Shown here piece after piece: positions 28 to 45,254 of a stretch of DNA of 55,901 nucleotides (the first letter of the stretch is position 1; every line of letters begins with the position of its first letter). A program made the position numbers and the translations under genes. This stretch comes from a virus. Below the pieces are notes generated by a model that ran no database searches, was not told the origin of the DNA, and worked only from the letters and a program-made list of their open reading frames with translations. Location of the stretch: the IMG/VR virus record IMGVR_UViG_3300045988_171564; one strand, 5' to 3'.

Positions 28-2352
28 GCGGGCGACTGGTACGGCGCAGGCTCGATACTGGCCGATAAGGTCAACGAAATGATAGATCAGGTTGACTGGG
101 ACGGCTGGGGGCACAAGCTGGGCGCAGGCCTTGAGCACGGCATAGAGCTTGCGGATGGCTTTTTGGCCACGCTAAAGCTTGACAAGCTGGGGGCGGGGCT
201 GGCTACGTCGCTTAACGGCGTAATGGATGAGGTTGACTTTACCGCCGCCGGGCGCGTGTTCATGGCTAAGTGGAAGCTACTGTTCGATATGGCTTACGGC
301 TTTATCAATACGTTCGACTGGGCGCAATTCGGCGTGTCGGTGGGTAACTTCATTAACGGCTCGTTTGAGGGATTCAACATAGAGCGCGGCGCGTACTTAG
401 TGATAGGCGGTCTGAACGGGTTGTTTACATCGTTGATAAACGCCGCAAAGACTATCAAGTGGACGGAGATAGGGCAAAGCGTAGGCAAGGCCATTAACAA
501 CGCGCCGTGGCGCGACATGTTTGTGAACGCGGGAACAGCGCTTTCCGACGGGCTAAAGGGCATGTTTACGACGCTTATAAACGCCGTCCAGACAATAAAC
601 TGGAAAGAGCTGGGTACGTCGGCGGCAGACGGCATGAACGCCGTTGACTGGGTAGGCGTTGCCCAAAAGGCGGGTCAATTCGTCGGTGAAGGGCTAAAAA
701 GCCTTGCTAGCTTTGTAGGTAGCTTCATGAGCAATGCCGATTGGTTCAGGATAGGTGCAGGCATTGCCGCATTGCTTGAAGGCATCGACTGGCAAGGTCT
801 TTCTGACAACCTTTTGTCATGCGCTAAGGGATTAGCAAGCGGCTTAGTTAGCGCTATAAAGGGCTTTTTTCTTGAAGATTCCAACTTTAACGGTGTCCCG
901 GGATGGATGGAAGCAGCGGGGGCGATTGCCAATTTCCTGCTGCAACTGCTTGATGCTGGCGTAAAAGAGTTGGTTAAAATGCCGCTTAAGATCGGGTATG
1001 AGGTCGCCGACTGGATTGCAGAGGCGCTAAAGGACATGATCGACGCAGTATTCCCCGGAATGGGGCTGGGCGACCGGCTTTATAACGGCATAATGGAATC
1101 CGTGCGAATGTCTGACCCATACTATGTGGAAGAACTGGCACGCCAAATGGCTGAAGGTACTGGCGAAGGTGTAGAAAAGGGCATCGACATGGCCAGCAAT
1201 TCTGCTGACTTTGCAAGTGCCGCTCAGGACGCGGGCTATAAGATCGGTGAGAATCTGGGCAAAGGTGCAGGGCGTTTTACCAGCTATGCAACGTGGATAA
1301 ACCCCACCATAAAAAAGAGCATGGTATCCGTCGGCGAAAACGCCGTGGTGGGGTTCCAAAAGGGCATAGAGAACAAGGAAGACAGCTTAAAAAGCACCAT
1401 GTCCGACGCGGCGGGTGATGGGCTTCTGAACCACCTTAAAACCATATTGGGCATACACTCCCCGTCAACCGAAATGGAAAGCATCGGTGAAAACACGCTT
1501 CAAGGCCTTATAAACGGCCTTATCGCAAAGGAAGCGCTGCTGACCGTAACCACGGCGGCATGTACGCTCATTATGACTACGGCGTTTACGGTAGCATGGA
1601 CGGCTATCAAGCTGGGCACTACGCTGGCGTGGTCAACGTCGGCGGACGGCATCATAGGCCGCATGAACGCGGGCATATCGGCGGGCGATACGGCGCTTAA
1701 AAATGGCTCAACCCTATGGGTAAACACCGTCGGCGGCGCGTGGACGCAGATTAAAGACGCGATACCTGCGGGCTGGGCGCAGATAAGCGCGAGCATAAAG
1801 GCACAGTCTGAGCAGGCCGCAAACGGCATGAAAACTGCGTTTGAAAGCGCCAAAGGGTCGATACTGGCGGTATGGGACGGCATAAAGAGCGGCGTGCAGT
1901 CGGCGATAAGCGACATAATAAGCGCAGTTAACCGCATGTCATCGTCGGTGTCGTCGGCCATAAGCTCGATGAACAACTCCATTAACCGCTTTACAAACGG
2001 CGCGAACCAGAAGATCACGCAGACGCAGACCAAGATAAACGAAATCAAAGTGCCCAAATTCGCGAGCGGCGGTTATCCGAACACGGGCGAACTGTTCCTT
2101 GCGCGCGAGGCCGGCCCCGAATTGGTAGGCTCGATACGCGGCAGATCGGCGGTGGCCAACAACGACCAGATTGTCGAGGGCATACGCCAGGGCGTGTACG
2201 AGGCCGTATCGGCGGCGCAGAATGGCAATCAGGGCGGCACGATAGAAGTCAAGCTGTACATAGACGGCAGACAGGTAGCCGCATCGGTAGAAAAAGCACA
2301 GCGCGAACGCGGCGCGACGATATATCCGGGAGGTGTGCTGAGTGGCGCTTAA
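1..2352 (+). CDS. Tail tape measure protein, C-terminal part (continues from 54417..55901 across the circle junction)
   Basis: Frame 1 is open from nt 1 with no upstream stop. The combined ORF is about 1269 aa and lies directly after the G/GT chaperone pair. Sequence is repetitive and Ala/Gly-rich. Confidence 0.85.
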   Translation, partial: VDQIKNAIEAGDWYGAGSILADKVNEMIDQVDWDGWGHKLGAGLEHGIELADGFLATLKLDKLGAGLATSLNGVMDEVDFTAAGRVFMAKWKLLFDMAYGFINTFDWAQFGVSVGNFINGSFEGFNIERGAYLVIGGLNGLFTSLINAAKTIKWTEIGQSVGKAINNAPWRDMFVNAGTALSDGLKGMFTTLINAVQTINWKELGTSAADGMNAVDWVGVAQKAGQFVGEGLKSLASFVGSFMSNADWFRIGAGIAALLEGIDWQGLSDNLLSCAKGLASGLVSAIKGFFLEDSNFNGVPGWMEAAGAIANFLLQLLDAGVKELVKMPLKIGYEVADWIAEALKDMIDAVFPGMGLGDRLYNGIMESVRMSDPYYVEELARQMAEGTGEGVEKGIDMASNSADFASAAQDAGYKIGENLGKGAGRFTSYATWINPTIKKSMVSVGENAVVGFQKGIENKEDSLKSTMSDAAGDGLLNHLKTILGIHSPSTEMESIGENTLQGLINGLIAKEALLTVTTAACTLIMTTAFTVAWTAIKLGTTLAWSTSADGIIGRMNAGISAGDTALKNGSTLWVNTVGGAWTQIKDAIPAGWAQISASIKAQSEQAANGMKTAFESAKGSILAVWDGIKSGVQSAISDIISAVNRMSSSVSSAISSMNNSINRFTNGANQKITQTQTKINEIKVPKFASGGYPNTGELFLAREAGPELVGSIRGRSAVANNDQIVEGIRQGVYEAVSAAQNGNQGGTIEVKLYIDGRQVAASVEKAQRERGATIYPGGVLSGA

Positions 2353-34495: not shown

Positions 34496-34708
34496 ATGAC
34501 TATAAATGATTTGCTAAAGGTGATCGAAGAACACACGCTGCTGACGCTGACACAGGAAGACGACCCTTTTATGGAGGCAGACATAATAGCTTGCGCCGCT
34601 CGAAGCATGGTGCGAGATGAGATATTTGATAAAGAGGTTACGCGGGTTACGGCAAGCAGCGGTCAATTAAAGGTATATTTTGCGAGCGATAAGGAGGTTC
34701 AGCCATAA
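34496..34708 (+). CDS. Hypothetical protein
   Basis: 70-aa ORF. Confidence 0.45.
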   Translation: MTINDLLKVIEEHTLLTLTQEDDPFMEADIIACAARSMVRDEIFDKEVTRVTASSGQLKVYFASDKEVQP

Positions 34709-35004
34709 TGCAGCAGACGTTTACTATCTCATTAGACGTTGACACTGAGGGCATTGCCCGCCGTATTACCGACAACGCCGAACAAACTATAATTGACAGG
34801 ATATATGCAGACATCGAAAGGCAGTATCTTGGAGCTGACTGGAACCGCAAGTATTATTATAGCAAGTTGGTCGGAAAAGCGGCTGAAAAGTTTCTGGATG
34901 AACATAAAGACGAAATCATAAGCCGTGTCGTGTCGCAATATTTGAATTGGGCAAAACACAGTCCAAATGTACGAAAGGCAGTTAAGGAAGTGACGGCAGA
35001 TTGA
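34708..35004 (+). CDS. Hypothetical protein
   Basis: ATAATG overlap with the upstream stop. 98 aa. Confidence 0.5.
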   Translation: MQQTFTISLDVDTEGIARRITDNAEQTIIDRIYADIERQYLGADWNRKYYYSKLVGKAAEKFLDEHKDEIISRVVSQYLNWAKHSPNVRKAVKEVTAD

Positions 35005-35009
35005 AGTTT

Positions 35010-35087
35010 ATGCAGATAGCCGGACTGATACTGCTTTGCTCGGTAATGATACTGATATTGCTGGCCTGCCAGGGAGGTAATGACTGA
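35010..35087 (+). CDS. Possible 25-aa hydrophobic peptide
   Basis: MQIAGLILLCSVMILILLACQGGND. Weak SD. Confidence 0.3.
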   Translation: MQIAGLILLCSVMILILLACQGGND

Positions 35088-35203
35088 TGGATTTTTCTGA
35101 AATCGTTGATAAGATCATGTATGTATTGCTTGCCCTCACGCTTTTGGGAGTGACGGTGATTGTGGTAGTTTTAGCAGCATGTTTTATAAAGATGATATTT
35201 TAG
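35087..35203 (+). CDS. Possible 38-aa single-TM peptide
   Basis: GGGAGG SD. TGATG overlap. MDFSEIVDKIMYVLLALTLLGVTVIVVVLAACFIKMIF. Confidence 0.4.
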   Translation: MDFSEIVDKIMYVLLALTLLGVTVIVVVLAACFIKMIF

Positions 35204-35214
35204 GTGGTGTACAG

Positions 35215-35874
35215 ATGCGTCCGGAGATAGAAAGAGAAACCCGCGAAATGTATGAACTGCATCGCGCCGGGATGACAATAGCCGAACTGGAGGCTAAATA
35301 CTATGTATCGGGACGGGCTATAAGCGAGCGCTTTCGAGTGCTCGCCCTGCCCAGGGTTAAATGGGCAAGGCCGTATAAGATCAGCGAGGCACAGGCGCGG
35401 GAAATGCACGAATTGCGCCTGAAAGGGGTATCTTATGCACACATAGCGCGCAAGTATGGCGTGGCCAAAGCGACGGTGTTCAATGCGCTTGCGCGGCATG
35501 GGTTTAGCAACACCAATCAAAACGAAAGTTATGAGGAAATAAGCAACGTGAATAACGGAATGACGCTTAACGAATATCAGATGGCGGCACAGCGTACCAG
35601 CGCGGGCAAGAACAAGCTTGATAACGGCTGTCTCGGTTTGGCGGGCGAAAGCGGTGAATGCTGCGACATACTCAAGAAGCACAGATTTCAGGGGCATGAG
35701 CTGGACATAAATCACCTGATCGAAGAACTGGGTGACGTAATGTGGTATGTGGCCGAAGCGGCAGCGGGTATTGGAGTGACGCTGGAAGATGTGGCGAAGC
35801 GCAATGTCGAAAAGCTGGAACGCCGCTATCCGTCGGGCTTTGACGCACAGCGCAGTATGCACAGGGGGGCGTAA
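35215..35874 (+). CDS. Fusion of tandem HTH motifs with a MazG-like NTP pyrophosphohydrolase domain
   Basis: C-terminal half LNEYQ..GLAGESGECCDILKKH..LIEELGDVMWYVAEAA..NVEKLERRY carries the MazG-type E-x2-E / E-x2-D metal motifs. The N-terminal half has two resolvase-type HTH units. Confidence 0.7.
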   Translation: MRPEIERETREMYELHRAGMTIAELEAKYYVSGRAISERFRVLALPRVKWARPYKISEAQAREMHELRLKGVSYAHIARKYGVAKATVFNALARHGFSNTNQNESYEEISNVNNGMTLNEYQMAAQRTSAGKNKLDNGCLGLAGESGECCDILKKHRFQGHELDINHLIEELGDVMWYVAEAAAGIGVTLEDVAKRNVEKLERRYPSGFDAQRSMHRGA

Positions 35875-35878
35875 AGAT

Positions 35879-36454
35879 ATGCCGTCAAAAGTCGGGGAAA
35901 AGTCGCGGCAAATCTTAGCCCAGCGCGGGCGCGACCGCAAGCAGGCCCAGCGCACGCAAGCGTTGGAAGACAGCCCAAATCGCATACTTATCAGCGCTGC
36001 AATGGCCGTATACTCAATGCCTCCGCTCAATCTCAATGACCCAATGGCGGTAGCGGAGCGCGTGCAATGGTACTTTGACCAATGCTCCAACAACGGCATA
36101 CCGCCGGGCGTGGCTGGGCTGGCTAACGCGCTGGGCGTAACGCGCGCGACTATCTTTGCGTGGGCAAACGGCGAGACGCGCAGTGACGATAAGCGGTACA
36201 TGTATACGGCGCGGCGCGCGCTAAGTCTGCTTGAAGCGGTTTGGGAATCCAACATGCAAACCGGCATGATTGATTCGGGCGTGGGCAAGCTCATCGGGCA
36301 AAATAACTTTGGTTATGTGACGGGCAACGTCGAAGCGCCGTCCCATCGCGTGGCCTCCGCGCCAGAGCTGCAAAGCGTGGAAGTAATCGAAGCAAAGTAT
36401 CTGCCCGAATCGACCGGCGAAAAAGCAAGCGACGAAAAGAGCGAGGGCAATTAA
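35879..36454 (+). CDS. terS: Terminase small subunit
   Basis: ERVQWYFDQCSNNGIPPGVAGLANALGVTRATIFAWANG is the typical TerS HTH region. It is separated from terL by 9 kb. Confidence 0.65.
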   Translation: MPSKVGEKSRQILAQRGRDRKQAQRTQALEDSPNRILISAAMAVYSMPPLNLNDPMAVAERVQWYFDQCSNNGIPPGVAGLANALGVTRATIFAWANGETRSDDKRYMYTARRALSLLEAVWESNMQTGMIDSGVGKLIGQNNFGYVTGNVEAPSHRVASAPELQSVEVIEAKYLPESTGEKASDEKSEGN

Positions 36455-36470
36455 CCCTCGCTCTTCTTTG
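36439..36470. terminator. Bidirectional hairpin between convergent terS and the minus-strand operon
   Basis: GAGCGAGGG-caattaa-CCCTCGCTC. The loop contains the terS stop codon. Confidence 0.6.
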
Positions 36471-36471
36471 C

Positions 36472-37536
36472 TCATTTAACAGGCCGTATAGTAGGCACTA
36501 TTTCGCCCTTATCGCCATTTATCAGCATGGGCGGCAGCCACTTGACTACTATCTTGCGGTCAACGGATTCTTTCGCGCCCGTCCAAAACGAATGATAGTG
36601 CCCGCGCCGTATATGCGCGATGGGCGAGGCGTGCTTCCTATGTTCAGGCTGCTGCTCCGCTTCGTCGTTAATCTCTTTCACCTTTTGGCGGTCAAGGCGT
36701 ATAGCCGCCCCTATGCGCGTGCCGACGTTAGTGATATTCGTCCGGCGCGGCGGGCGCTCGGGCGTATAGGTGGTGTACGTGGGCTTTGCCTTTACACTGC
36801 GTGGCCGATTGTCATAGTCGGGTTCGTCGGTGCAGAGGTAGAGCAGCAGGTTGATAATCTTGCGGAAAATGTTTTCAGATTCGCCATAGCCGACTACACC
36901 GTTAAGGACCTTGCTCAATAACTCGGGGTTGCGCCCAAACGCATTGTGCGTGTCAGTCAAATATTGCAAAGCCGAGGCGCATCTTAATCCCTTGACTGCT
37001 TCTTCAATTGTGCCCTCAAGTGGACACACATCCGCATCGATACGGTTGCCGTCGGCGTCGAGGGCGATTACCGTCAGCTCTTTTTGCCGATTGTGGGAGT
37101 TCCACTTGATCCACGCAAAAAACCCATCGGCAGGAATTGGCGCATCAAAGATTATGCTGCGCGCGTGAAGCTGGACATATACGCACGGGACGGGGAAGCG
37201 TAAAAGCACGTCGCCGGGTATCTCGCCGGGGAAGTCCTGCTCAATAAGCTCTTTTTCAAGGATTTCGTCAAAAGCAAAAATCTGCTTTGACTTACGCCAC
37301 AAATATGCGGCCTCAACATTCAGAATATCGGCTGCATATTCGAGCATATTTATAGTGGTAAGACCGTACTGCTTGCAGACGGCGGCGTACCCCGCGCCGG
37401 TAGGCAGCGCCGCCCAGTCAGGCCAAGCGCCTTCTGCCTTTGCTTCCTCGCGTATAGCGGGCAGCGAATCCAGCTTATCAAATGCGCGCATCATTTCGCG
37501 CTCGATTTTCTTTGTAAAGATTTCAGGCGCCAGCAT
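36472..37536 (-). CDS. Hypothetical 354-aa protein (last gene of the minus-strand module)
   Basis: Long clean ORF. C-terminal AHIRRGHYHSFWTG..KWLPPMLIN motif. No family recognised by eye. Confidence 0.6.
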   Translation of the reverse strand: MLAPEIFTKKIEREMMRAFDKLDSLPAIREEAKAEGAWPDWAALPTGAGYAAVCKQYGLTTINMLEYAADILNVEAAYLWRKSKQIFAFDEILEKELIEQDFPGEIPGDVLLRFPVPCVYVQLHARSIIFDAPIPADGFFAWIKWNSHNRQKELTVIALDADGNRIDADVCPLEGTIEEAVKGLRCASALQYLTDTHNAFGRNPELLSKVLNGVVGYGESENIFRKIINLLLYLCTDEPDYDNRPRSVKAKPTYTTYTPERPPRRTNITNVGTRIGAAIRLDRQKVKEINDEAEQQPEHRKHASPIAHIRRGHYHSFWTGAKESVDRKIVVKWLPPMLINGDKGEIVPTIRPVK

Positions 37537-37537
37537 C

Positions 37538-37795
37538 TCACCGCCCCCTAAAGATTACTTTCCAAAATCCAACGAAGTTCCGAAACTCCAGCCACACAAC
37601 GGATCGGATAAGCCGCCCGTGCATAACGTGCGGATTCTCTGCGCTTAAAGCGTCGCGGATTATCATCTCAAATTCTGGCGATACGTTTTCACTAGCAGCC
37701 AATATCCGGGCTTTAGCTGCTTCAATCGCGGCGTCGTTTTCTTCTGGGGTCGCCTGCTTTGCCTCTTTGTATCTTTTATATAGCTTTAACATCAT
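37538..37795 (-). CDS. Hypothetical 85-aa protein
   Basis: ATG 37795 follows AAAGGGG. Preceded by the internal promoter. Confidence 0.5.
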   Translation of the reverse strand: MMLKLYKRYKEAKQATPEENDAAIEAAKARILAASENVSPEFEMIIRDALSAENPHVMHGRLIRSVVWLEFRNFVGFWKVIFRGR

Positions 37796-37880
37796 GTTAC
37801 CCCTTTCTAAAAAAATGTGGAAAAAGGAATACTTTTGAAGTCTTGACTTTGCTGGCAAGGAAATGTACTAGAACAATGCC

Positions 37881-37909
37881 ATTATATCAAAAAGCGTTCC
37901 TTTTTGCAA
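37881..37909 (-). promoter_or_regulatory. Internal promoter of the minus-strand module
   Basis: Minus strand reads TTGCAA (37909-37904), 17-nt spacer, TATAAT (37886-37881). Confidence 0.6.
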
Positions 37910-37947
37910 AGAAAATGCCGCTCATACGAGCGACACTAAACTATTGC

Positions 37948-37999
37948 GGGGTTATGGCGAAACGAAACGATTGGGGGTTATGGCGAAACGGAACGACTG
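37948..37999. repeat. 26-bp tandem duplication spanning the 3' end of gene 37952..38353
   Basis: GGGGTTATGGCGAAACGAAACGATTG followed by GGGGTTATGGCGAAACGGAACGACTG, with 2 mismatches. Confidence 0.9.
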
Positions 38000-38353
38000 A
38001 GGCTTATAATCATTGGCATCGCGATCGTAGTGCCACAGCGTCAGATCAACGCCGTAACATGCGCAAGCGTACATGACGGCCGTCGTGCATGGCGTTAGCC
38101 CCGTCACAACAACGTTCAGCGGTTCGCCGACAACTATTGTAGTGTCATCCCAGCCGTTAATGGCGCTGCCGATCGCATTGCGCGGACTACAATGCTCGTA
38201 CACATATTTGTCCGCGATGTGGAGCAGCCTCGCGAAATCGAGAACGTTCTCGATTTCACCATAAATGTATTCATCCACCGGTAGTGGATGCCGTCCGGCG
38301 CACAAACCAACCACGCGCTTCCCGGACGCTATAACATCATTCAAAGTTTGCAT
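37952..38353 (-). CDS. Hypothetical 133-aa protein
   Basis: Alternating beta/alpha pattern (VVGLCAGRH ... LNVVVTGLTPCTTAVMYACACYG). No family recognised. Confidence 0.55.
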   Translation of the reverse strand: MQTLNDVIASGKRVVGLCAGRHPLPVDEYIYGEIENVLDFARLLHIADKYVYEHCSPRNAIGSAINGWDDTTIVVGEPLNVVVTGLTPCTTAVMYACACYGVDLTLWHYDRDANDYKPQSFRFAITPNRFVSP

Positions 38354-38398
38354 ATCGTCTTTCCTCCATGCCCGGCGCTTTTTTGCGCCCGCGGCTAT

Positions 38399-39238
38399 TT
38401 ATCTCTTGGCCAACATTCTTTTCAGCACTCTCAACCATTGCGGCTTATCCAAGTCGCGTAAATCCTCGCCGCGCCGGAGCGTGCCGCCAACGCGCACATA
38501 TTCGCGTTCCGGTCGGGAACGGCTTGACCTGCCCGCAATCAGCCATTCGACCGCCGCTTGAATTTCTTCCGGCGGTATGCGCGGAACCGTATACCGCGTG
38601 ATGCCGTCCGGATTACGATAGATGCAGCTACCGTAACGCGGCAGGTTTTCCGCGCCCGCAACGCCGATTATGTTGCGGCTGTCCTGCGCGGTCGGGCACC
38701 TGAGCGCAACGCGCGCGTCAATGTTGACAGCGATTTGCCCGTTGATTAAATCGCGCGTCGGGCGCTGGGTTGCGGCGATTACGTGTACGTTCGCCGCGCG
38801 CCCAAGCTGGGTAAGCCGCGCAAGCAGCGGTGTTACCTCCTTTTTGCTGGTAGTCATGAGGTCGGCCAGCTCATCGATAATGACGTATACAGCCGGTTCC
38901 CCGTAAAACTTACGTTCAGCGGGGTTCGAGCGCTCCATCATTATCCTGTAGCGATTATCCATCAGCCTGACCACGCTTTCCAACGTGCGGATAATGTCGT
39001 CCGGCTCCGTTGCGTGCATTGCCGTCTGAGGCAAGCACGCATAGTCAATCAACTCGACCCGCTTGGGGTCGATGAGGTATAGGTTGGGCGCCTTGTGCTC
39101 ATGAAGCGCGCCGAGCAGGTGGTAAATCAGGTTATGCAGCAACACCGATTTGCCCGAGCCGGTTGCGCCTGCTATAAGAAGATGAGGTTGATTAACCATG
39201 TCCATGAAAGGCTTATACCTTGTAAATGACCGCTCCAT
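38399..39238 (-). CDS. FtsK/SpoIIIE-family ATPase (motor domain only, no TM segment)
   Basis: Walker A LLIAGATGSGKSVLL. Walker B VYVIIDELADLM. VHVIAATQRP and ARVALRC motifs. Confidence 0.8.
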   Translation of the reverse strand: MERSFTRYKPFMDMVNQPHLLIAGATGSGKSVLLHNLIYHLLGALHEHKAPNLYLIDPKRVELIDYACLPQTAMHATEPDDIIRTLESVVRLMDNRYRIMMERSNPAERKFYGEPAVYVIIDELADLMTTSKKEVTPLLARLTQLGRAANVHVIAATQRPTRDLINGQIAVNIDARVALRCPTAQDSRNIIGVAGAENLPRYGSCIYRNPDGITRYTVPRIPPEEIQAAVEWLIAGRSSRSRPEREYVRVGGTLRRGEDLRDLDKPQWLRVLKRMLAKR

Positions 39239-39286
39239 ATGTTACGCGCGCGTATAGGCGCGATTCACCTCCTTGGATGCCCTAAT

Positions 39287-39976
39287 TTATTCGTAAATTT
39301 CGTCAAAATCGCAAACTTCGTCATCGCCGCCGACGTCGGCATTGCCATAGACTTTAGCACCATTGTAGACCTCGGCGCAACCGTTCACCTCGGCACTGCC
39401 GTAAACTTCGGCACAACCATGTATCGAGGCATTATCATAAATCTCCGCGTCATCGTAAATCTCAGCATCGTCGGAGACTTCTGCTTCTCCGTGCACTTGA
39501 GCGTTGCCATAAACATTGGCGCCGCCGTAGACCTCGGCACTGTCGTACACGCGGGCGTTGTCGTATACCTTAGGCCAATCATATATTCTGGCGTGGCCGT
39601 AAACTTTCGCGGCGCCGTATACATCACCGCCGTGTACATTGGCATCGCCGTATACCTCGGCATTGCCGTAAACGTGGGTGGTTTCGACGTAGGCATTGCC
39701 GTACACGCGGGCATTGTCATAAATGTGGCCGTCCATAATGCAAGCGTTTCCGCCGACTTTGGCATCGTCACATACTATGGTGCCGCCGTAAATTTTAGCA
39801 TCATCGTATACCCAAGCGCTGCCGTCGTCGCTTATATCACCGTCGTACTCGACCCAGCCGCCCACGTCGCCCGCGTGAACGTCACCGAAATCGCGCAGCG
39901 CCTTAACGCGGTATACCGTATATATCTCGTCTACTATCATGGACTCTTCTTTGACCAGCTCATACTTCTTTCCCAT
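39287..39976 (-). CDS. Beta-helix-type hexad-repeat protein, paralog A
   Basis: N-term YELV..YRVKALRDFGDVHAGDVGGWVE, then about 25 six-residue units (xVYGxA: AEVYGD ANVHGG...). The start is set at MGKKYELV by analogy with paralog B. Confidence 0.7.
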   Translation of the reverse strand: MGKKYELVKEESMIVDEIYTVYRVKALRDFGDVHAGDVGGWVEYDGDISDDGSAWVYDDAKIYGGTIVCDDAKVGGNACIMDGHIYDNARVYGNAYVETTHVYGNAEVYGDANVHGGDVYGAAKVYGHARIYDWPKVYDNARVYDSAEVYGGANVYGNAQVHGEAEVSDDAEIYDDAEIYDNASIHGCAEVYGSAEVNGCAEVYNGAKVYGNADVGGDDEVCDFDEIYE

Positions 39977-40046
39977 TTTGTCCTCCATGCGTATATATTA
40001 GCCGGGCTTGTGACCGGCTCGCCGCATTATCGGCCCGTTTGGGCCG

Positions 40047-41015
40047 TCACTCTGCGTAAAGCCTATCCAGCTTTTCACAAAGCGCCTCATGCTGCTGCCA
40101 AGTAATCTTACCGGCCAGCAGCGCGTTACCGATTTTGCCGCCCATATAGCGGCGCTTACGCTCGCTGACGCTGTACCCGCTCCAGCGCGCGGCCCACTTG
40201 ACAGCCGCGCGGCTGCCATCTACCACGTCCCAAAGATTGAGACGCGTTGCGGCCGTGAAAGCGCGTGCGACGGCCATATTGCAGCGCCACATCTCTGCGG
40301 TGTCGCCGTCGCCGTCAACCTCGTCTAAGGCGACGTCGAACGTGCGGCCAGTCGCCGCGATTGTAACCGTGACGCTCCAGCGCGCGCCAAAGTCGCCGCA
40401 GTTCATGTCATCACAGCCGACAATCAAATCGCCGACTGTGGACGTCGCCCACACTGCGCCGCCTGCGGGATTAAAGTACCCGCCGCCGTTATGCGCGTAA
40501 TCAGGGTTAGCAAAATCATTAGTCTCTTCGCCCCAGCAGTTTATTAGCAGGGGCTTCAGTCCGTGCTTTACAGGCTTGTTGATGCTCTTAATTTTCATGT
40601 TATTCTCCTCCACTTTTCTGTTCATTTCGCCGCTTGCTGTTATGCGACGACGGCGCCCCGTCGCACGCGCAAAAAACGTGCGGGTCTCCAAATCGCAAAT
40701 CACATTTTCAGCGTCGTTCAAAAACGTGATGTGCGGGTATATTACGCGGCGGTATCCCATCGCCACAATCAGACCGCGCGGGCCTAACCACTGTACGTCA
40801 TCGTACAGTTTGGTTTGCACGGCCTCTTCACGCTCCATAACGTCGCGAGCCTTGCGGCATTCTGCCGCGCACGCAAACGCATACTTGCGCTTGCGTGTGC
40901 GCTGATACATGTTGTAATACGCCTGCGCGGTTACTACCGCGCGGCGGATTACGAGTACGTCGCGTTCGTACATGGCGCGTACTTCCTGAGCAACCTTTTT
41001 AATGTTCTTATCCAT
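40047..41015 (-). CDS. Hypothetical protein (322 aa; an internal SD plus ATG at 40597 could give a shorter product)
   Basis: ATG 41015 follows GGAGGG. GGAGGAG precedes the internal MKIKSINK. No motif recognised. Confidence 0.5.
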   Translation of the reverse strand: MDKNIKKVAQEVRAMYERDVLVIRRAVVTAQAYYNMYQRTRKRKYAFACAAECRKARDVMEREEAVQTKLYDDVQWLGPRGLIVAMGYRRVIYPHITFLNDAENVICDLETRTFFARATGRRRRITASGEMNRKVEENNMKIKSINKPVKHGLKPLLINCWGEETNDFANPDYAHNGGGYFNPAGGAVWATSTVGDLIVGCDDMNCGDFGARWSVTVTIAATGRTFDVALDEVDGDGDTAEMWRCNMAVARAFTAATRLNLWDVVDGSRAAVKWAARWSGYSVSERKRRYMGGKIGNALLAGKITWQQHEALCEKLDRLYAE

Positions 41016-41049
41016 TTTTCCCTCCAATTACTCCAATGTTCGGCATTTA

Positions 41050-41280
41050 TTACTCTTGTTCAAAAGCCTTTGACGCCCAAACACCTTTATGGGCGTCCGC
41101 ACGCCGAGGGTTACTCGGCTCGCCGTCTGCGTCTACCGCGTACAAGCGTACGCAGTAGTACTTGTCGCGCCCAGCCTCAAAGCCTGCGCGCGCCGCGTCC
41201 ATGCCCAGCTCGTCAACGTCGCGCTCCACGTCGTCGCGTGCCAAATCCTTTATGCTGTCCATGGCCGCCCGCCATGCCAT
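41050..41280 (-). CDS. Hypothetical 76-aa protein
   Basis: ORF only. Confidence 0.45.
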   Translation of the reverse strand: MAWRAAMDSIKDLARDDVERDVDELGMDAARAGFEAGRDKYYCVRLYAVDADGEPSNPRRADAHKGVWASKAFEQE

Positions 41281-41313
41281 ACCCGCCTCGACATTCGATT
41301 ACCACTTTGTAGT

Positions 41314-41958
41314 TCACGGCTGTTCTCCTTGCGCGTGCTCAGCGATGTTCGCGCTGCCGTATACTTCAGCGAACTCATGCACCTCGGCGTTGCCGTATAC
41401 GCGGGCGTTGCCGTATACGGCCGCGCACCCGTGTATAGTGGCGTTGCCGTAAACCTCAGCACCGTCGTATACGCAGGCGCTGCCGTATACGCGGGCACCG
41501 TCGTATACGCAGGCGTTGCCTTCCACCTCGGTGTATTCATGCACCTCGGCGTTGCCGTAAACCTCAGCATTGCCGTATACGCAGGCGCTGCCGTATACGC
41601 GGGCACCGTCGTATACGCAGGCGTTGCCGTATACTTCAGCGAACTCATGCACCTCGGCGTTGCCGTAAACCTCAGCATCGCCGTATACGCAGGCGTTGCC
41701 GTATACGCGGGCGCTGCCGTATACGCAAGCACCGTCGTATACGCGGGCGTTGCCGTATACGCAAGCACCGTCGTATACGCGGGCGTTGCCGTATACCCAG
41801 GCGCTGCCGTCCTGGCTAAGGCAGGTATCATCTTCAATCCACCCGCCCACGTCGCCCGCGTGAACGTCGCCAAAATCACGCAAGGCCTTGACTCTGTAAA
41901 AAGTATGGCCGATGGTATGCGCGTTGTTCGCATCGACCAACTCATATTTTCTTGGCAT
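41314..41958 (-). CDS. Beta-helix-type hexad-repeat protein, paralog B
   Basis: MPRKYELV..FYRVKALRDFGDVHAGDVGGWIE, then about 27 hexads (ARVYDG ACVYGN ...). The DNA shows an 18-bp periodicity. Confidence 0.7.
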   Translation of the reverse strand: MPRKYELVDANNAHTIGHTFYRVKALRDFGDVHAGDVGGWIEDDTCLSQDGSAWVYGNARVYDGACVYGNARVYDGACVYGSARVYGNACVYGDAEVYGNAEVHEFAEVYGNACVYDGARVYGSACVYGNAEVYGNAEVHEYTEVEGNACVYDGARVYGSACVYDGAEVYGNATIHGCAAVYGNARVYGNAEVHEFAEVYGSANIAEHAQGEQP

Positions 41959-41983
41959 AAATGATATACCTCCATGCGGTAAT

Positions 41984-42060
41984 TCGGTTTCCCGTGACGC
42001 GGCGGCGTATTGCCGCCGCGTTTCGGCCTGTTACCGGCAGGCCATCATCAGACGGGCCAA
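41984..42060 (-). ncRNA. Hammerhead ribozyme (type I topology), copy 1
   Basis: Minus strand reads UUGGCCCGU-CUGAUGA-U-GGCCUG(CCGGUAA)CAGGCC-GAA-ACGCGGCGGC(AAUAC)GCCGCCGCGU-C|ACGGG-AAA-CCGA. The full conserved core and three stems are present. Confidence 0.8.
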
Positions 42061-42704
42061 GGGCGCAGACCCAGCGCATAAGCCGCGCCGGCTCCGCAGG
42101 CGGCAACGTCCAGCCTGCCGCAATCGCAGACCTCGGCACTGCTGTCCGCATCTTGCTGCTCCCACTCTAGCAGCTCGTCGCGGTTCAGGTCTACAAGCTC
42201 CCAGTCCTGCCACGCGTCCGCGTCCGCGTGGAGTTCCAGCAGCGCGTTTAGGAGCTGGCCCTCGGGCGATTGCTCCCAGCCCGCGACTACTGCGACTGGC
42301 GTGCCAGCACAGTCGCAGATGTACAGGCGGACAAACCCGCCGTTGTCCTCGTATACCCTATATCGGGTATCGGATGTAAGCATACCGGCGTCCTCAGCCA
42401 GCAGGGCAACCCTACCGGCGGCGGCGTCCATAAGCTCGTCAACGTAGTCGTAGTCGTCGGGGTCAAGTCCTGCCGCCTCGGCGATTTTGTCGTAGGCATC
42501 CGGCTCCAGGCAATCCCACGCGGGCGCGGCGTCTGCGACCCTGTAGAGGTCGTAGGCGCTGAGGCGTTCAAGCCCCTCAAAAGTTCCGTCGCGGTCATGC
42601 GTGTCGCGCGCTGTCTGATCCAGCGCGTCGCCGTCCTTTATGTGACGCCAGGTATCGGCGTCGATGGTAGCTAGCTTGGTAGAGTCGATGTAGTAGCTTG
42701 CCAT
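42048..42704 (-). CDS. Strongly acidic 218-aa protein (DNA-mimic / antirestriction candidate)
   Basis: Asp/Glu-rich throughout (DPDDYDYVDELMD, ELLEWEQQDADSS). Its stop codon UGA lies inside the hammerhead CUGAUGA core. Confidence 0.55.
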   Translation of the reverse strand: MASYYIDSTKLATIDADTWRHIKDGDALDQTARDTHDRDGTFEGLERLSAYDLYRVADAAPAWDCLEPDAYDKIAEAAGLDPDDYDYVDELMDAAAGRVALLAEDAGMLTSDTRYRVYEDNGGFVRLYICDCAGTPVAVVAGWEQSPEGQLLNALLELHADADAWQDWELVDLNRDELLEWEQQDADSSAEVCDCGRLDVAACGAGAAYALGLRPWPV

Positions 42705-42764
42705 TTTTTTGTACCTCCTTTTTTTCCCCTCTTAATTCATCCGCGCGCCGTATGGCGCGCTATG

Positions 42765-43274
42765 TTATACCGTGGCCATCGCGCCGCTGTGGGCGCTGTA
42801 CATCTGGCTACCATACTTAGCGCGTATGGTAGCCATGTCAACCTGACGACGGCTATATGCGCCGCCGTCGTCAGCCGCGTGCCAGTACCACGCCTTTTTA
42901 GTGCCGCTCCAGCGGCACCCCAGCGCTTTTAGTGCGGCGCGGTGCTGGTATGTGTCGCCGGTTATCCATAGCCAGCGGCCACACAATTCAATTTCCAGCC
43001 CCGCCAGTTTGAGCAGGGCCAGAAGCGTGTCTCGCCAGGCGGTCGCCTCATATGCGCTTGCGGCGGCGTCATACTCGCGCGCGCCCGAACTCGCCGCGCG
43101 GTGCTCTGTGCGCGCTATACGCGCGACGGCTTCATCGTAGGCGTTGTTGAGCGCCTTCATGGCGGCCTCACTGCCGCCGGGGCAGTCAGGATGACACTTG
43201 ACTGCCAAGCGGCGATATGCCTTTTTGAGGTCGTCCATCGTCTTGATGGGCGCGAATATTGCGTTAAAGTTCAT
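42765..43274 (-). CDS. J-domain (DnaJ-like) protein with an uncharacterised C-terminal domain
   Basis: LKKAYRRLAVKCHPDCPGGSEAAMKALNNAYDEA carries the HPD motif. C-term CGRWLWITGDTYQHRAALKALGCRWSGTKKAWYWH. Confidence 0.75.
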   Translation of the reverse strand: MNFNAIFAPIKTMDDLKKAYRRLAVKCHPDCPGGSEAAMKALNNAYDEAVARIARTEHRAASSGAREYDAAASAYEATAWRDTLLALLKLAGLEIELCGRWLWITGDTYQHRAALKALGCRWSGTKKAWYWHAADDGGAYSRRQVDMATIRAKYGSQMYSAHSGAMATV

Positions 43275-43293
43275 GCTCTTTATATACCCCTGT

Positions 43294-43378
43294 GATAATA
43301 TTCGGTTTCCCGTGACGCTCCGTGCTGGAGCGTTTCGGCGCGTGACCAGCGCGCCATCGTCAGACGGGCGATATAATC
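43294..43378 (-). ncRNA. Hammerhead ribozyme (type I topology), copy 2
   Basis: Minus strand reads ..UCGCCCGU-CUGACGA-U-GGCGCG(CUGGUCA)CGCGCC-GAA-ACGCUCC(AGCAC)GGAGCGU-C|ACGGG-AAA-CCGAAUAUUAUC. Stems II and III differ from copy 1 but remain paired. Confidence 0.8.
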
Positions 43379-43409
43379 AGCGCGTAAAAGCCATTTCGAC
43401 CGCCCCGCT

Positions 43410-43745
43410 CTAAGCAATTTTAATGCCGTGCAAGGCGCATGTGAGCATGATTTGCTCTTGCATTGCAAACCCGCAATGCAGATTCGGGCAGATGGACTCT
43501 ATTAAGTCCAACACGCCCGGCTCTTTTGACGGGTAGGCGCTCATGCGCAAACCGTCGGCGGCAAGTAACACTTGCTCAATCCCGGCCGCGTATGCCTTGA
43601 TTTTGGCCTCGTTGGCCTGCATCAATTCGTGCAGGCCGTTCGAACCGCAAACATTGTTGCTTGCAAAAGCTTCATCCACGACTGCCGCCTTTGCAATATA
43701 CTTCGACAGCCCTTTTATGGTTTTGAATTTTACTTTTGCTTTCAT
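43410..43745 (-). CDS. Hypothetical 111-aa protein (first gene of the minus-strand module)
   Basis: SD AGGAGGGAAAAG precedes ATG 43745. Confidence 0.55.
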   Translation of the reverse strand: MKAKVKFKTIKGLSKYIAKAAVVDEAFASNNVCGSNGLHELMQANEAKIKAYAAGIEQVLLAADGLRMSAYPSKEPGVLDLIESICPNLHCGFAMQEQIMLTCALHGIKIA

Positions 43746-43909
43746 CTTTTCCCTCCTCTTATATATATAGTAATTATTACTGAGGTATTCCTATAGTATT
43801 GTGGTGTGTATGGGAGAGCGGATTTTTATTGAGCGGGACAAAATTGACCCGGTTCTTTATCCGCCCGCGCCGCATGTCATATTTGCGGCGTTCCCCTGAC
43901 CACATGCTT

Positions 43910-43938
43910 ATTATACCACATTTGCATGATTATGTCAA
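43910..43938 (-). promoter_or_regulatory. Consensus sigma-70-type promoter of the minus-strand module
   Basis: Minus strand reads TTGACA (43938-43933), 17-nt spacer, TATAAT (43915-43910). The leader to ATG 43745 is about 155 nt. Confidence 0.7.
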
Positions 43939-43978
43939 GCGTTTCGGACGGTCTTTTTTCGCTTTTTGGCTACTTTTT

Positions 43979-44004
43979 TTGCACAAATGCGGGCTTTTGT
44001 GCAA
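43979..44004. promoter_or_regulatory. 9-bp inverted repeat, candidate operator between the divergent promoters
   Basis: TTGCACAAA-tgcgggct-TTTGTGCAA. Confidence 0.4.
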
Positions 44005-44063
44005 TGATACAACATGTTCAATTTGCTCATACATTTCATGATCAAGTTTATCACGCCCACGCG

Positions 44064-44321
44064 CCCCCCCCTCACCCGGTGCACTGTATGGCCTCTTGCG
44101 CCCTTGCACGTCCCTTGTACGTCCTTGTACGCCTTTACGCGCCTCTTAGCTGGCCGCGTCTTAGCCGCTTGCACCCGGCGAGGCGTGCGCCCCTTAGCTG
44201 GCCGCGTCGCTTGCCCTCAGTCGCTTTTATGCACGCGCCCCCCGGCGGCTATGCGTCTGACTGCCTGACTGCCCCCCGTGGGGATATGGCCAATTAGCTG
44301 TCCCCCCCCGGTTAGCCCCCC
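44064..44321. repeat. C-rich region with poly-C tracts and 16-bp direct repeats (candidate res / pac / structured DNA)
   Basis: C8 at 44064-44071 and 44302-44309. C6 runs at 44238, 44272 and 44316. CTTAGCTGGCCGCGTC at 44145-44160 and 44193-44208. CCTTGTACG occurs twice. Confidence 0.6.
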
Positions 44322-44340
44322 GACCACATTCAAAAAAATA

Positions 44341-44369
44341 TTGACATTACCACACACACATGATATAAT
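44341..44369 (+). promoter_or_regulatory. Consensus promoter for the HTH and recombinase genes
   Basis: TTGACA (44341-44346), 17-nt spacer, TATAAT (44364-44369). Confidence 0.7.
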
Positions 44370-44386
44370 GTATATGAGGTGAGACG

Positions 44387-44728
44387 ATGGCTACGAAATC
44401 TAAAAACGAGATGCAGACTTTAAGCTCGAAAGATGCTATAAGGGCATTGTGTTCTTTGCGAAAATGGACGCAAGCTGATCTTGCTTATGAAATGGGATAT
44501 GCGAGCCAAGCAGGCGTTGGACAGATGCTTAGTGATAGACAGAACTCCAAAAAAGGTATGTCGCTATCGACGTATGAAAAGGCTCTTGAAGCCCTAGGCG
44601 CTGAATTGATAGTCCGTGACAAGATGGGCAGCGGGAAGGAGTGGAAGATAGATGATTTACTTTTACGCGAGAGTGTCGACGGTGGAGCAAAATCTAGCAA
44701 GGCAGATAGAAGCAGCGAAGAAGTATAA
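44387..44728 (+). CDS. XRE-like HTH regulator
   Basis: LRKWTQADLAYEMGYASQAGVGQMLS HTH. Overlaps the recombinase start by 77 nt. Confidence 0.6.
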   Translation: MATKSKNEMQTLSSKDAIRALCSLRKWTQADLAYEMGYASQAGVGQMLSDRQNSKKGMSLSTYEKALEALGAELIVRDKMGSGKEWKIDDLLLRESVDGGAKSSKADRSSEEV

Positions 44729-45254
44729 AGGCGTTGACGAAATCTTTTCCGACAAGATGAGCGGAAAGAACTTTAACAGAGTAGAGTATCAGCGCATGAA
44801 GTCGATGCTTCAGAAGGGCGACGAAGTAGTTGTGAAATCGCTTGACCGTCTGGGCAGAGATAAGAACCTTGTGAAAGATGAAATCCAGTGGTTCAAAGAG
44901 CATGGTGTGAAACTGAGGATACTGGACATACCGACGACGCTCATTGAGATGGACGGTCAGGAATGGGTAGGCGATATGGTAACGAACATACTGATCGAGG
45001 TCATGGCGAGCGTTGCGGAGCAGGAGCGCATGATGATAAGAGAGCGTCAGCGCGAGGGGATAGAAGCCAAGCGTAAATCGGGGACATGGGACGAATACGG
45101 GCGGCCAAAGAAGAATACGGACGGGATAGAAGATTACTGGCTGGCGTATAAGTCAGGCGAAATGACGCGGGAGGATTGCTGTAAGGCGTTGGGCATATCT
45201 TCAAGGACACTGTATAATCGCGCAAAGGAACTTAACTTGATGATGGCGAACTAA
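44652..45254 (+). CDS. Small serine recombinase (resolvase/invertase family)
   Basis: MIYFYARVSTVEQNLARQ (catalytic Ser motif), VVKSLDRLGRD, and a C-terminal HTH EDCCKALGISSRTLYNRAKE. 200 aa. Confidence 0.85.
   Translation: MIYFYARVSTVEQNLARQIEAAKKYKGVDEIFSDKMSGKNFNRVEYQRMKSMLQKGDEVVVKSLDRLGRDKNLVKDEIQWFKEHGVKLRILDIPTTLIEMDGQEWVGDMVTNILIEVMASVAEQERMMIRERQREGIEAKRKSGTWDEYGRPKKNTDGIEDYWLAYKSGEMTREDCCKALGISSRTLYNRAKELNLMMAN

Follow-up and report, generated by a model that had tools for sequence, protein, structure and literature searches.

Comparative evidence for a type I hammerhead ribozyme between cistrons of a phage operon and for a large related lineage in phages of gut Clostridia

Results

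Gene and ribozyme content of the operon

The stretch of DNA analysed here, 55,901 nucleotides long and referred to below as the window (IMG/VR virus record IMGVR_UViG_3300045988_171564), is a siphovirus-like phage genome that encodes tape measure, tail fibre, RecE/RecT and DnaD-like proteins along with DnaB, terminase, portal and major head genes. An operon on its minus strand, extending from about 43745 to 35200, contains, in this order, orf111, a hammerhead (copy 2), a DnaJ-like gene, orf218, a further hammerhead (copy 1, the subject of this study), YdcK paralogue 1, a 76-aa ORF, orf326, a Twister-P5 ribozyme, YdcK paralogue 2 and an FtsK-like gene. The features needed for the argument are the following.

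43910..43938, minus strand: predicted sigma-70-type promoter, TTGACA-17-TATAAT with TG (12/12 consensus match only)
43301..43368, minus strand: hammerhead copy 2, same family as copy 1; C17 is 43314; 75.6 bits with model R1
42048..42704, minus strand: upstream gene, 218 aa, no family match; stop UGA 42050-42048 is U4-G5-A6 of copy 1
41983..42056, minus strand: hammerhead copy 1, type I, as judged from sequence, model R1, the minimum free energy (MFE) structure and family covariation
42056-42052 with 41995-41991, minus strand: stem I of copy 1, CCCGU with ACGGG, 5 bp
42051-42045, minus strand: core C3-A9 of copy 1, CUGAUGA
42044, minus strand: extra U of copy 1, between A9 and G10.1
42043-42038 with 42030-42025, minus strand: stem II of copy 1, GGCCUG with CAGGCC, 6 bp
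42037-42031, minus strand: loop II of copy 1, CCGGUAA; C42036, G42035, G42034 and U42033 are the 5' side of the pseudoknot
42024-42022, minus strand: G12 A13 A14 of copy 1
42021-42012 with 42006-41997, minus strand: stem III of copy 1, 10 bp, first pair A15.1-U16.1, loop AAUAC
41996, minus strand: C17 of copy 1; predicted cut 41996/41995
41985..41988, minus strand: ACCG in the 3' tail directly after stem I; 3' side of the pseudoknot, partner of loop II
41314..41958, minus strand: downstream gene, YdcK-type beta-solenoid repeat protein, 214 aa (PF18836, 2.5e-19; phrog_7964, phrog_5070)
40002..40056, minus strand: Twister-P5 ribozyme (Rfam RF02684, 60.4 bits versus a gathering score of 37.6)

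The 218-aa gene upstream of copy 1, whose protein ends in W-P-V, is called at this length in public ENA and Logan metagenome assemblies, and a partial homologue of its product is encoded in another contig (L068) between two hammerhead copies on the same strand. As originally predicted, the gene terminates within the ribozyme, at the UGA of CUGAUGA. The downstream gene starts at ATG 41958, which lies 37 nt after the predicted cut and is preceded by the Shine-Dalgarno sequence GGAGG at 41973-41969. An alternative start at ATG 41975, which would open a 241-aa frame, was rejected because the Pfam and PHROG beta-solenoid matches and the GGAGG belong to the 41958 frame. The region 41089-41975 is open in three frames on the two strands (291, 241 and 214 aa), with family support only for the 214-aa frame; the 291- and 241-aa ORFs look like by-products of the GC-rich repeat. 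In a near-identical metagenome contig (L300; ENA ERZ27229724, 3747-4247), the gene that follows the hammerhead is called at 166 rather than 214 aa, which suggests variation in repeat number in the beta-solenoid gene between close relatives.

Copy 2 shares with copy 1 both ends and the extra U, and differs from it by compensatory changes in stems II and III. Its cut would fall 39 nt before ATG 43274 of the DnaJ-domain gene (42765..43274); the ORF upstream of it ends 49 nt before C3, so that the stop codon does not overlap the ribozyme. The Twister-P5 ribozyme, the sole match when the whole window was compared with Rfam at the gathering threshold, contains in its 5' part the stop codon (UGA 40049-40047) of ORF 40047..41027 and lies just upstream of the second YdcK paralogue (39287..39988). 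Both YdcK paralogues share the leader motif GCAUGGAGG, and with a hammerhead ahead of one and a twister ahead of the other, equivalent positions are filled by unrelated ribozyme classes. Two hammerheads and one Twister-P5 ribozyme within 3.4 kb of the minus strand form an intercistronic ribozyme cluster.

The promoter at 43938-43910 probably drives the leftward operon that carries both hammerheads and the twister. From 43910 to 39800, the minus strand showed no terminator-like site, and neither a promoter-like nor a terminator-like site was found between the genes that flank copy 1. Divergent from this promoter is a second extended -10 sigma-70 promoter with a 12/12 match (44341-44369, plus strand), which points to resolvase and terminase genes. 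The intervening region between the ribozyme operon and the terminase gene also encodes a 200-aa serine recombinase (44652-45254, plus strand; Pfam Resolvase, public gene call), possibly a phage integrase or invertase.

Sequence and predicted fold of copy 1

Read along the minus strand from 42060 to 41984, the element agrees base by base with the original prediction. The core positions C3 U4 G5 A6 N7 G8 A9, G12 A13 A14, the A15.1-U16.1 pair and H17 are all present, as that prediction had asserted for every invariant hammerhead position. Its assignment of a 6-bp stem II, a 10-bp stem III and an open stem I is likewise borne out: loops close stems II and III, and the 5' and 3' ends lie in stem I, which is the type I topology. 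The same holds for the coordinates of the proposed cut, 41996/41995, and of the resulting 37-nt leader. In ribozymes of type I topology, nearly the whole ribozyme is retained on the 5' product. The one departure from the strict hammerhead consensus, which has no added core nucleotides, is the U at 42044; because this position is a documented tolerated exception (PMC1636495), the extra U is compatible with hammerhead membership.

The MFE structure of the minimal 74-nt element is the hammerhead fold, and the same is true of copy 2. When 30-40 nt of flanking sequence are included, competing folds are predicted to be more stable than the hammerhead fold of copy 1, so that folding would need to be co-transcriptional.

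Detection by pattern and covariance models

A loose core pattern matched the window twice, compared to 0.07 matches expected from dinucleotide shuffles, and a generic type I hammerhead descriptor yielded 262 matches in the window and 1.58 Mb of related viral loci but 0 in the reversed sequences. A covariance model, R1, was built from 19 sequences of other viral contigs, with the window excluded. R1 scored copy 1 at 73.8 bits (E 1.6e-19) and copy 2 at 75.6 bits (E 4.8e-20), whereas the best non-hammerhead match in the window reached 11 bits.

The curated models performed differently. The hammerhead models of Rfam 15 did not match copy 1 either at the gathering score or at E<=10 (41800-42300), gave no match within 34500-45000 at E<=1, and returned no hammerhead from the whole window at the gathering threshold; nor did they match any of about 100 family copies at 34 loci. 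This failure had been foreseen in the original prediction, on the grounds that the models may penalise the extra U. The models do fail, but the explanation holds only in part: the best Rfam score of a family member with a canonical core was 19.1 bits on RF03152 (RAGATH-1-hammerhead), against a gathering score of 56.3. Because a canonical-core member also scores low, the miss is due to the architecture of these elements and not only to the extra U. The Rfam failure reflects model coverage rather than the RNA.

A family of related elements in phages and Clostridia

About 300 relatives of copy 1 were identified, in genomes of Clostridia as well as in viral contigs. In IMG/VR, three scans with patterns gave 178 loci, and R1 matched 164 and 145 elements in the viral loci, the latter number including both window copies. 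Family copies often occur in groups of 3-8 within a few kilobases, and related loci carry up to 7-8 of them. The genome-contig scan was noisy, with 42 of 120 loci passing a structural filter, and in the filtered set the family is almost entirely confined to Clostridia, namely Oscillospiraceae, Ruminococcaceae, Lachnospiraceae, Acutalibacter, Colidextribacter and Neglectibacter. A member is also present in a cultured phage, Flavonifractor phage Castelnaud (host F. plautii; ON453903.1, 1216-1282; R1 73.1 bits), which was the only match when the 74-nt element was compared by BLAST with phage records; a BLAST search with the 4.5-kb operon against 50,697 phage records did not find a close relative. 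Copy 1 thus belongs to a large lineage of elements in phages and prophages of gut Clostridia.

In the Castelnaud genome (L179; ON453903.1, 865-1330), GenBank annotates over the hammerhead only a minus-strand hypothetical ORF (901..1374). A plus-strand 119-aa ORF (865..1224) ends on U4-G5-A6, and what comes after the ribozyme is a terminator-like hairpin with a U-run, not a gene. The Castelnaud tail, GAGCCCGUCGGCA, is common to many IMG/VR members, and 3'-end trimming may be the role of the ribozyme in this sub-group.

Across the family alignments, stems I, II and III show base pairing in 96.6-99.8% of cases, and both-sided changes occur in 14-16 of the 17 stem pairs in each alignment. The covariation score was 0.51-0.53, compared to 0.14-0.15 for shuffled partners, with none of 500 shuffles reaching the observed value. 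These alignments were fitted to the model, which favours the structure; a control in which the registers were slid by 1-3 columns gave a covariation score of only 0.05-0.09, and this control and an independent descriptor parse agree with the structure. G-U pairs are found in the stems on the hammerhead strand only.

The near-identical ends (CCCGUCUGA...ACGGGAAACCGAAU) that recur 1.3 kb apart in the window could be taken to indicate a repeat that acts at the DNA level, for example in recombination or packaging, or a chance match instead of an RNA element. Several observations speak against this: the frequency expected by chance, about 0.07 per window, and the empty reversed-sequence controls; the compensatory stem changes between the two copies and the restriction of G-U pairs to one strand; and an orientation that follows the flanking genes. 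The covariation effectively refutes this reading, to which we assign a negligible probability.

The catalytic nucleotides C3, G5, A6, G8, A9, G12, A13 and A14 are unchanged in 220 distinct sequences. In the same set, U4 is replaced by C twice, the A15.1-U16.1 pair is swapped once, position 17 is C or, rarely, A, and N7 can be U, C or A. An active ribozyme predicts selection on every catalytic base along with a variable N7, and the observed pattern therefore fits activity.

Pseudoknot pairing of loop II with the 3' tail

Alignment of stems I and II by a tertiary contact is needed for fast cleavage of hammerheads at physiological Mg2+. In this family, such a contact was found in the form of a covarying pseudoknot that joins loop II to the 3' tail. 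In the window copy, GGU of loop II pairs with ACC of the tail, just 3' of stem I; elsewhere, the pairings are GGAU/AUCC, GGGC/GCCC, GGC/GCC, GAAU/AUUC, UGU/ACA and UAGC/GCUA. The central pair is AU in 29, UA in 29, GC in 13 and CG in 11 cases and is unpaired in 7, so that all four Watson-Crick types are represented.

The original prediction had assigned the same tail a different role, extending stem I by UUGG/CCGA across an AAA bulge. Although this extension can form in copy 1, it occurs in 1 of 254 members, the same as with shuffled partners, and is not conserved. The comparative data indicate that the AAACCG tail pairs with loop II, replacing the proposed stem I extension. With this correction, the identity claimed in the original prediction stands: the three stems covary, the catalytic nucleotides are invariant, N7 is free and the pseudoknot covaries, which together constitute strong comparative evidence that copy 1 is a type I hammerhead.

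A separate sub-class of type I hammerheads with a canonical core, located in the same contigs as the family (L067 622, minus; L088 8510, minus; L097 8083, plus; L275 2412, plus; and others), has loop II UGAAAAUU and an A-rich tail (UAAAAGAA). Members with the UGAAAAUU loop presumably use a different tertiary contact.

The extra U after A9

In the family, an extra U is the commonest state, being present in 105 of 123 and 69 of 97 distinct sequences in two family sets; among 70 hammerheads outside the search-pattern selection, 38 have the extra U and 27 have no extra base. Overall, the junction between A9 and stem II occurs in three states, namely an extra U, GAG (an extra A after G10.1) and no extra base. 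Relatives without the extra base include L141 and L162, and members with and without the extra U are found in the same contigs. An extra U at the same core position is also found in two satellite-RNA hammerheads, and De la Pena and Flores are said to have found in 2001 that a U at the insertion position raised, rather than lowered, the cleavage rate. The prevalence of this state agrees with the earlier suggestion that insertions after A9 are tolerated in natural hammerheads, as does a precedent in CChMVd, in which the (+) hammerhead tolerates an insertion between A9 and G10.1 (PMC1636495).

The inserted U adjoins the A9/G10.1 metal-binding site, and it is conceivable, if very unlikely, that it cripples the ribozyme, leaving a catalytically weak or dead hammerhead-shaped RNA that is kept as a 3' stabiliser or as a protein or RNase site. 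Consistent with such a reading, an extra A after A9 lowers the rate moderately in CChMVd (PMC1636495), slow cleavage is known for some of the natural core variants in phages (PMC3088659), and no Rfam model matches the element. Against it, a purely structural role would not hold all catalytic nucleotides invariant in 220 sequences that drift at N7 and in their stems and loops, and covariation is seen in the pseudoknot by which stems I and II are aligned for catalysis. Furthermore, within the same contigs, elements with a canonical core and elements with the U insertion are found at equivalent positions, and the reported gain in rate from a U at this position argues in the same direction.

Gene context across the family

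A long same-strand ORF ends within 250 nt upstream of the hammerhead in 237 of 272 distinct instances. A same-strand upstream ORF was found in 180 of 230 cases, compared to 90 for the mirrored strand, and hammerhead orientation therefore follows the flanking genes. From the cut, the next start codon is a median of 40 nt away (interquartile range 31-58). A constant downstream gene family was not found: 229 downstream proteins fall into 145 clusters with few Pfam matches, and the genes include those for ArdC-like, DUF3560 and HTH proteins. Other ribozymes in the same loci are Twister-P5, twister-sister, pistol, RAGATH-5 and Hammerhead_II; in L047 and L083, an Rfam search of the region immediately preceding the YdcK homologues found no ribozyme.

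In six contigs (L027, L054, L070, L122, L131 and L156), type I hammerheads form arrays of 6-8 that span about 4-5 kb, with roughly one hammerhead per small gene and with U-insertion, GAG-junction and canonical-core elements mixed. Two contigs with family hammerheads encode other structured RNAs, a ROOL RNA (L008 1-556, minus strand, 266 bits) and a RAGATH-5 RNA (L183 157-209, plus strand), as well as tRNAs and pistol and twister ribozymes.

In 168 of the 237 instances with an upstream ORF, the stop codon abuts or overlaps the ribozyme, from -20 to +1 relative to C3. The positions show sharp peaks at +1 (47 cases, in which the stop is U4-G5-A6) and at -8 to -12; in 121 of the 237, the stop is 6-20 nt ahead of C3, in most cases immediately next to stem I. 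The overlap cases, 47-48 of about 240 members, involve 43 unrelated upstream proteins.

This arrangement is compatible with cleavage being coupled to translation, instead of constitutive, such that a terminating ribosome would sit over stem I and the core and prevent folding, and the rate of cutting would depend on how the upstream gene is translated. The frequency with which stops fall at the ribozyme edge, the 48 overlaps with 43 unrelated proteins, and the twister of the same operon, which also contains the stop codon of its upstream gene, all fit such gating. However, tight packing is usual in phage genomes and would produce the same pattern without regulation; moreover, because the UGA is fixed in the core, any in-frame gene must end there. 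We accordingly regard translational gating as improbable. Should it be true, cleavage, and hence downstream expression, would report translation of the upstream cistron, amounting to a ribozyme-based translational coupling. The broader proposal, under which type I hammerheads with the U insertion and tail pseudoknot would form a distinct lineage that predominates among gut-Clostridia phages, is missed by curated models and has its 5' edge deliberately fused to the upstream stop, with ribosomes gating its folding, likewise appears improbable.

Discussion

The best explanation of the present findings, and one that we hold to be quite probable on comparative grounds, is that copy 1 is an active self-cleaving type I hammerhead that cuts a polycistronic RNA co-transcriptionally. 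We infer catalysis from the observed sequence, fold, covariation, conservation, pseudoknot and gene arrangement. Under this model, the element would be transcribed within the leftward polycistronic operon, probably from the 43938-43910 promoter. Stems II and III would form as the RNA emerges, followed by closure of the 5-bp stem I; CGGU of loop II and ACCG of the tail would then form a pseudoknot of 3-4 bp that holds stems I and II side by side, a role equivalent to that of the loop-loop contacts in other natural hammerheads. The extra U after A9 would be bulged out of the core, and the RNA would be cut 3' of C17, at 41996/41995.

Cleavage at this site would yield an upstream bicistronic RNA, encoding the DnaJ-like protein and the 218-aa ORF, with the whole ribozyme at its 3' end and a 2',3'-cyclic phosphate, and a downstream RNA, from the beta-solenoid gene onward, with a 5'-OH and a 37-nt leader that includes the ribosome-binding site. 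Together, the two hammerheads and the twister could divide the operon transcript into at least 4 pieces that may differ in stability and translation, so that cleavage would uncouple the fate of neighbouring cistrons. In Bacillus, RNase J1 degrades the 5'-OH RNA released by the glmS ribozyme; given this precedent, the downstream part may be destabilised in a Clostridia host.

None of these points overturns current understanding. Hammerheads that cluster and flank prophage genes have already been published, as have contacts through pseudoknots and insertions after A9, and the general phenomenon has been known since 2011. The biological role of bacterial and phage hammerheads is still considered open in reviews (PMC6765202, PMC6155905), and the present analysis bears on it in several ways. 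It exposes an annotation gap, namely a lineage with hundreds of members and zero Rfam matches, and shows that the 5' edge of the ribozyme is repeatedly fused to the stop codon of the upstream gene. The paralogous beta-solenoid genes of one operon, preceded by a hammerhead in one case and a twister in the other, represent a natural experiment: the use of different ribozyme classes before paralogues argues for the importance of the cut and not of the fold. Finally, the relative in the cultured Flavonifractor phage Castelnaud, which grows on F. plautii, makes cleavage directly testable.

Comparison with known systems

Perreault et al. (2011) described hundreds of bacterial hammerheads near prophage genes, often clustered and flanking single genes or short blocks; all three topologies are represented, each with examples of pseudoknots, and in about 40% a Watson-Crick pseudoknot replaces the loop-loop contacts (PMC3088659). 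At three prophage loci, polycistronic transcripts of about 2 kb were cleaved in vitro, with pseudoknots giving speed, and a role in the processing of long phage transcripts has already been proposed (PMC3088659). The window element resembles these prophage hammerheads in its consensus core, clustering, gene-flanking location and pseudoknot (PMC3088659). It differs in that the earlier study stresses type II elements with a pseudoknot between loop I and the 3' tail, as opposed to the type I, loop II-tail arrangement found here; in addition, that study documented rare core variants, and the extra U after A9 is absent from the eight new ones that it lists (PMC3088659). In the supplements of Perreault et al. 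other than Dataset S1, no match to the family motifs was found. Our search of the accessible literature found no phage hammerhead with an insertion after A9. Within the publications accessible to us, an incomplete set that did not include Dataset S1, we found no description of a large phage lineage in which most members have the extra U, and within the same incomplete set neither the type I loop II-tail pseudoknot as a family signature nor the recurrent stop-codon fusion was found described.

The extra A10 of the CChMVd (+) hammerhead lies at the same core position, between A9 and G10.1, and is compatible with self-cleavage (PMC1636495, citing De la Pena and Flores 2001). The CChMVd (+) and satellite cases are isolated type III hammerheads of plant circular RNAs with loop-loop contacts, whereas in the family described here the insertion is the majority state of a DNA-phage lineage with hundreds of members.

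Among the curated families, the Schistosoma-type Hammerhead_1 (RF00163) has the same type I topology, catalytic core and cleavage chemistry as the window element, for which cleavage is predicted. The contact is different: in RF00163, loop II meets an internal bulge in a long stem I, whereas the window element has a 5-bp stem I and a 3'-tail pseudoknot, and RF00163 did not match it at E<=10. RAGATH-1 (RF03152), also a type I hammerhead variant, comes from phage-like surroundings rich in ribozymes and combines a stem I of 5 bp with a long stem III, but possesses an extra 5' hairpin and a minimal, one-pair stem II. Assignment of copy 1 to RAGATH-1 was rejected in view of its 6-bp stem II, the coding sequence directly upstream and the lack of an RF03152 match. 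The pseudoknot hammerhead of crystal structure 8YDC (PMC11300833) was likewise set aside as a model, given that its fold is different, with the pseudoknot replacing helix II.

Twister and hammerhead ribozymes share gene associations and neighbourhoods (PMC6765202, PMC10085705). Twister, twister-sister and pistol ribozymes occupy the same genomic niche as the hammerheads described here and presumably do the same job, with folds and active sites that are unrelated.
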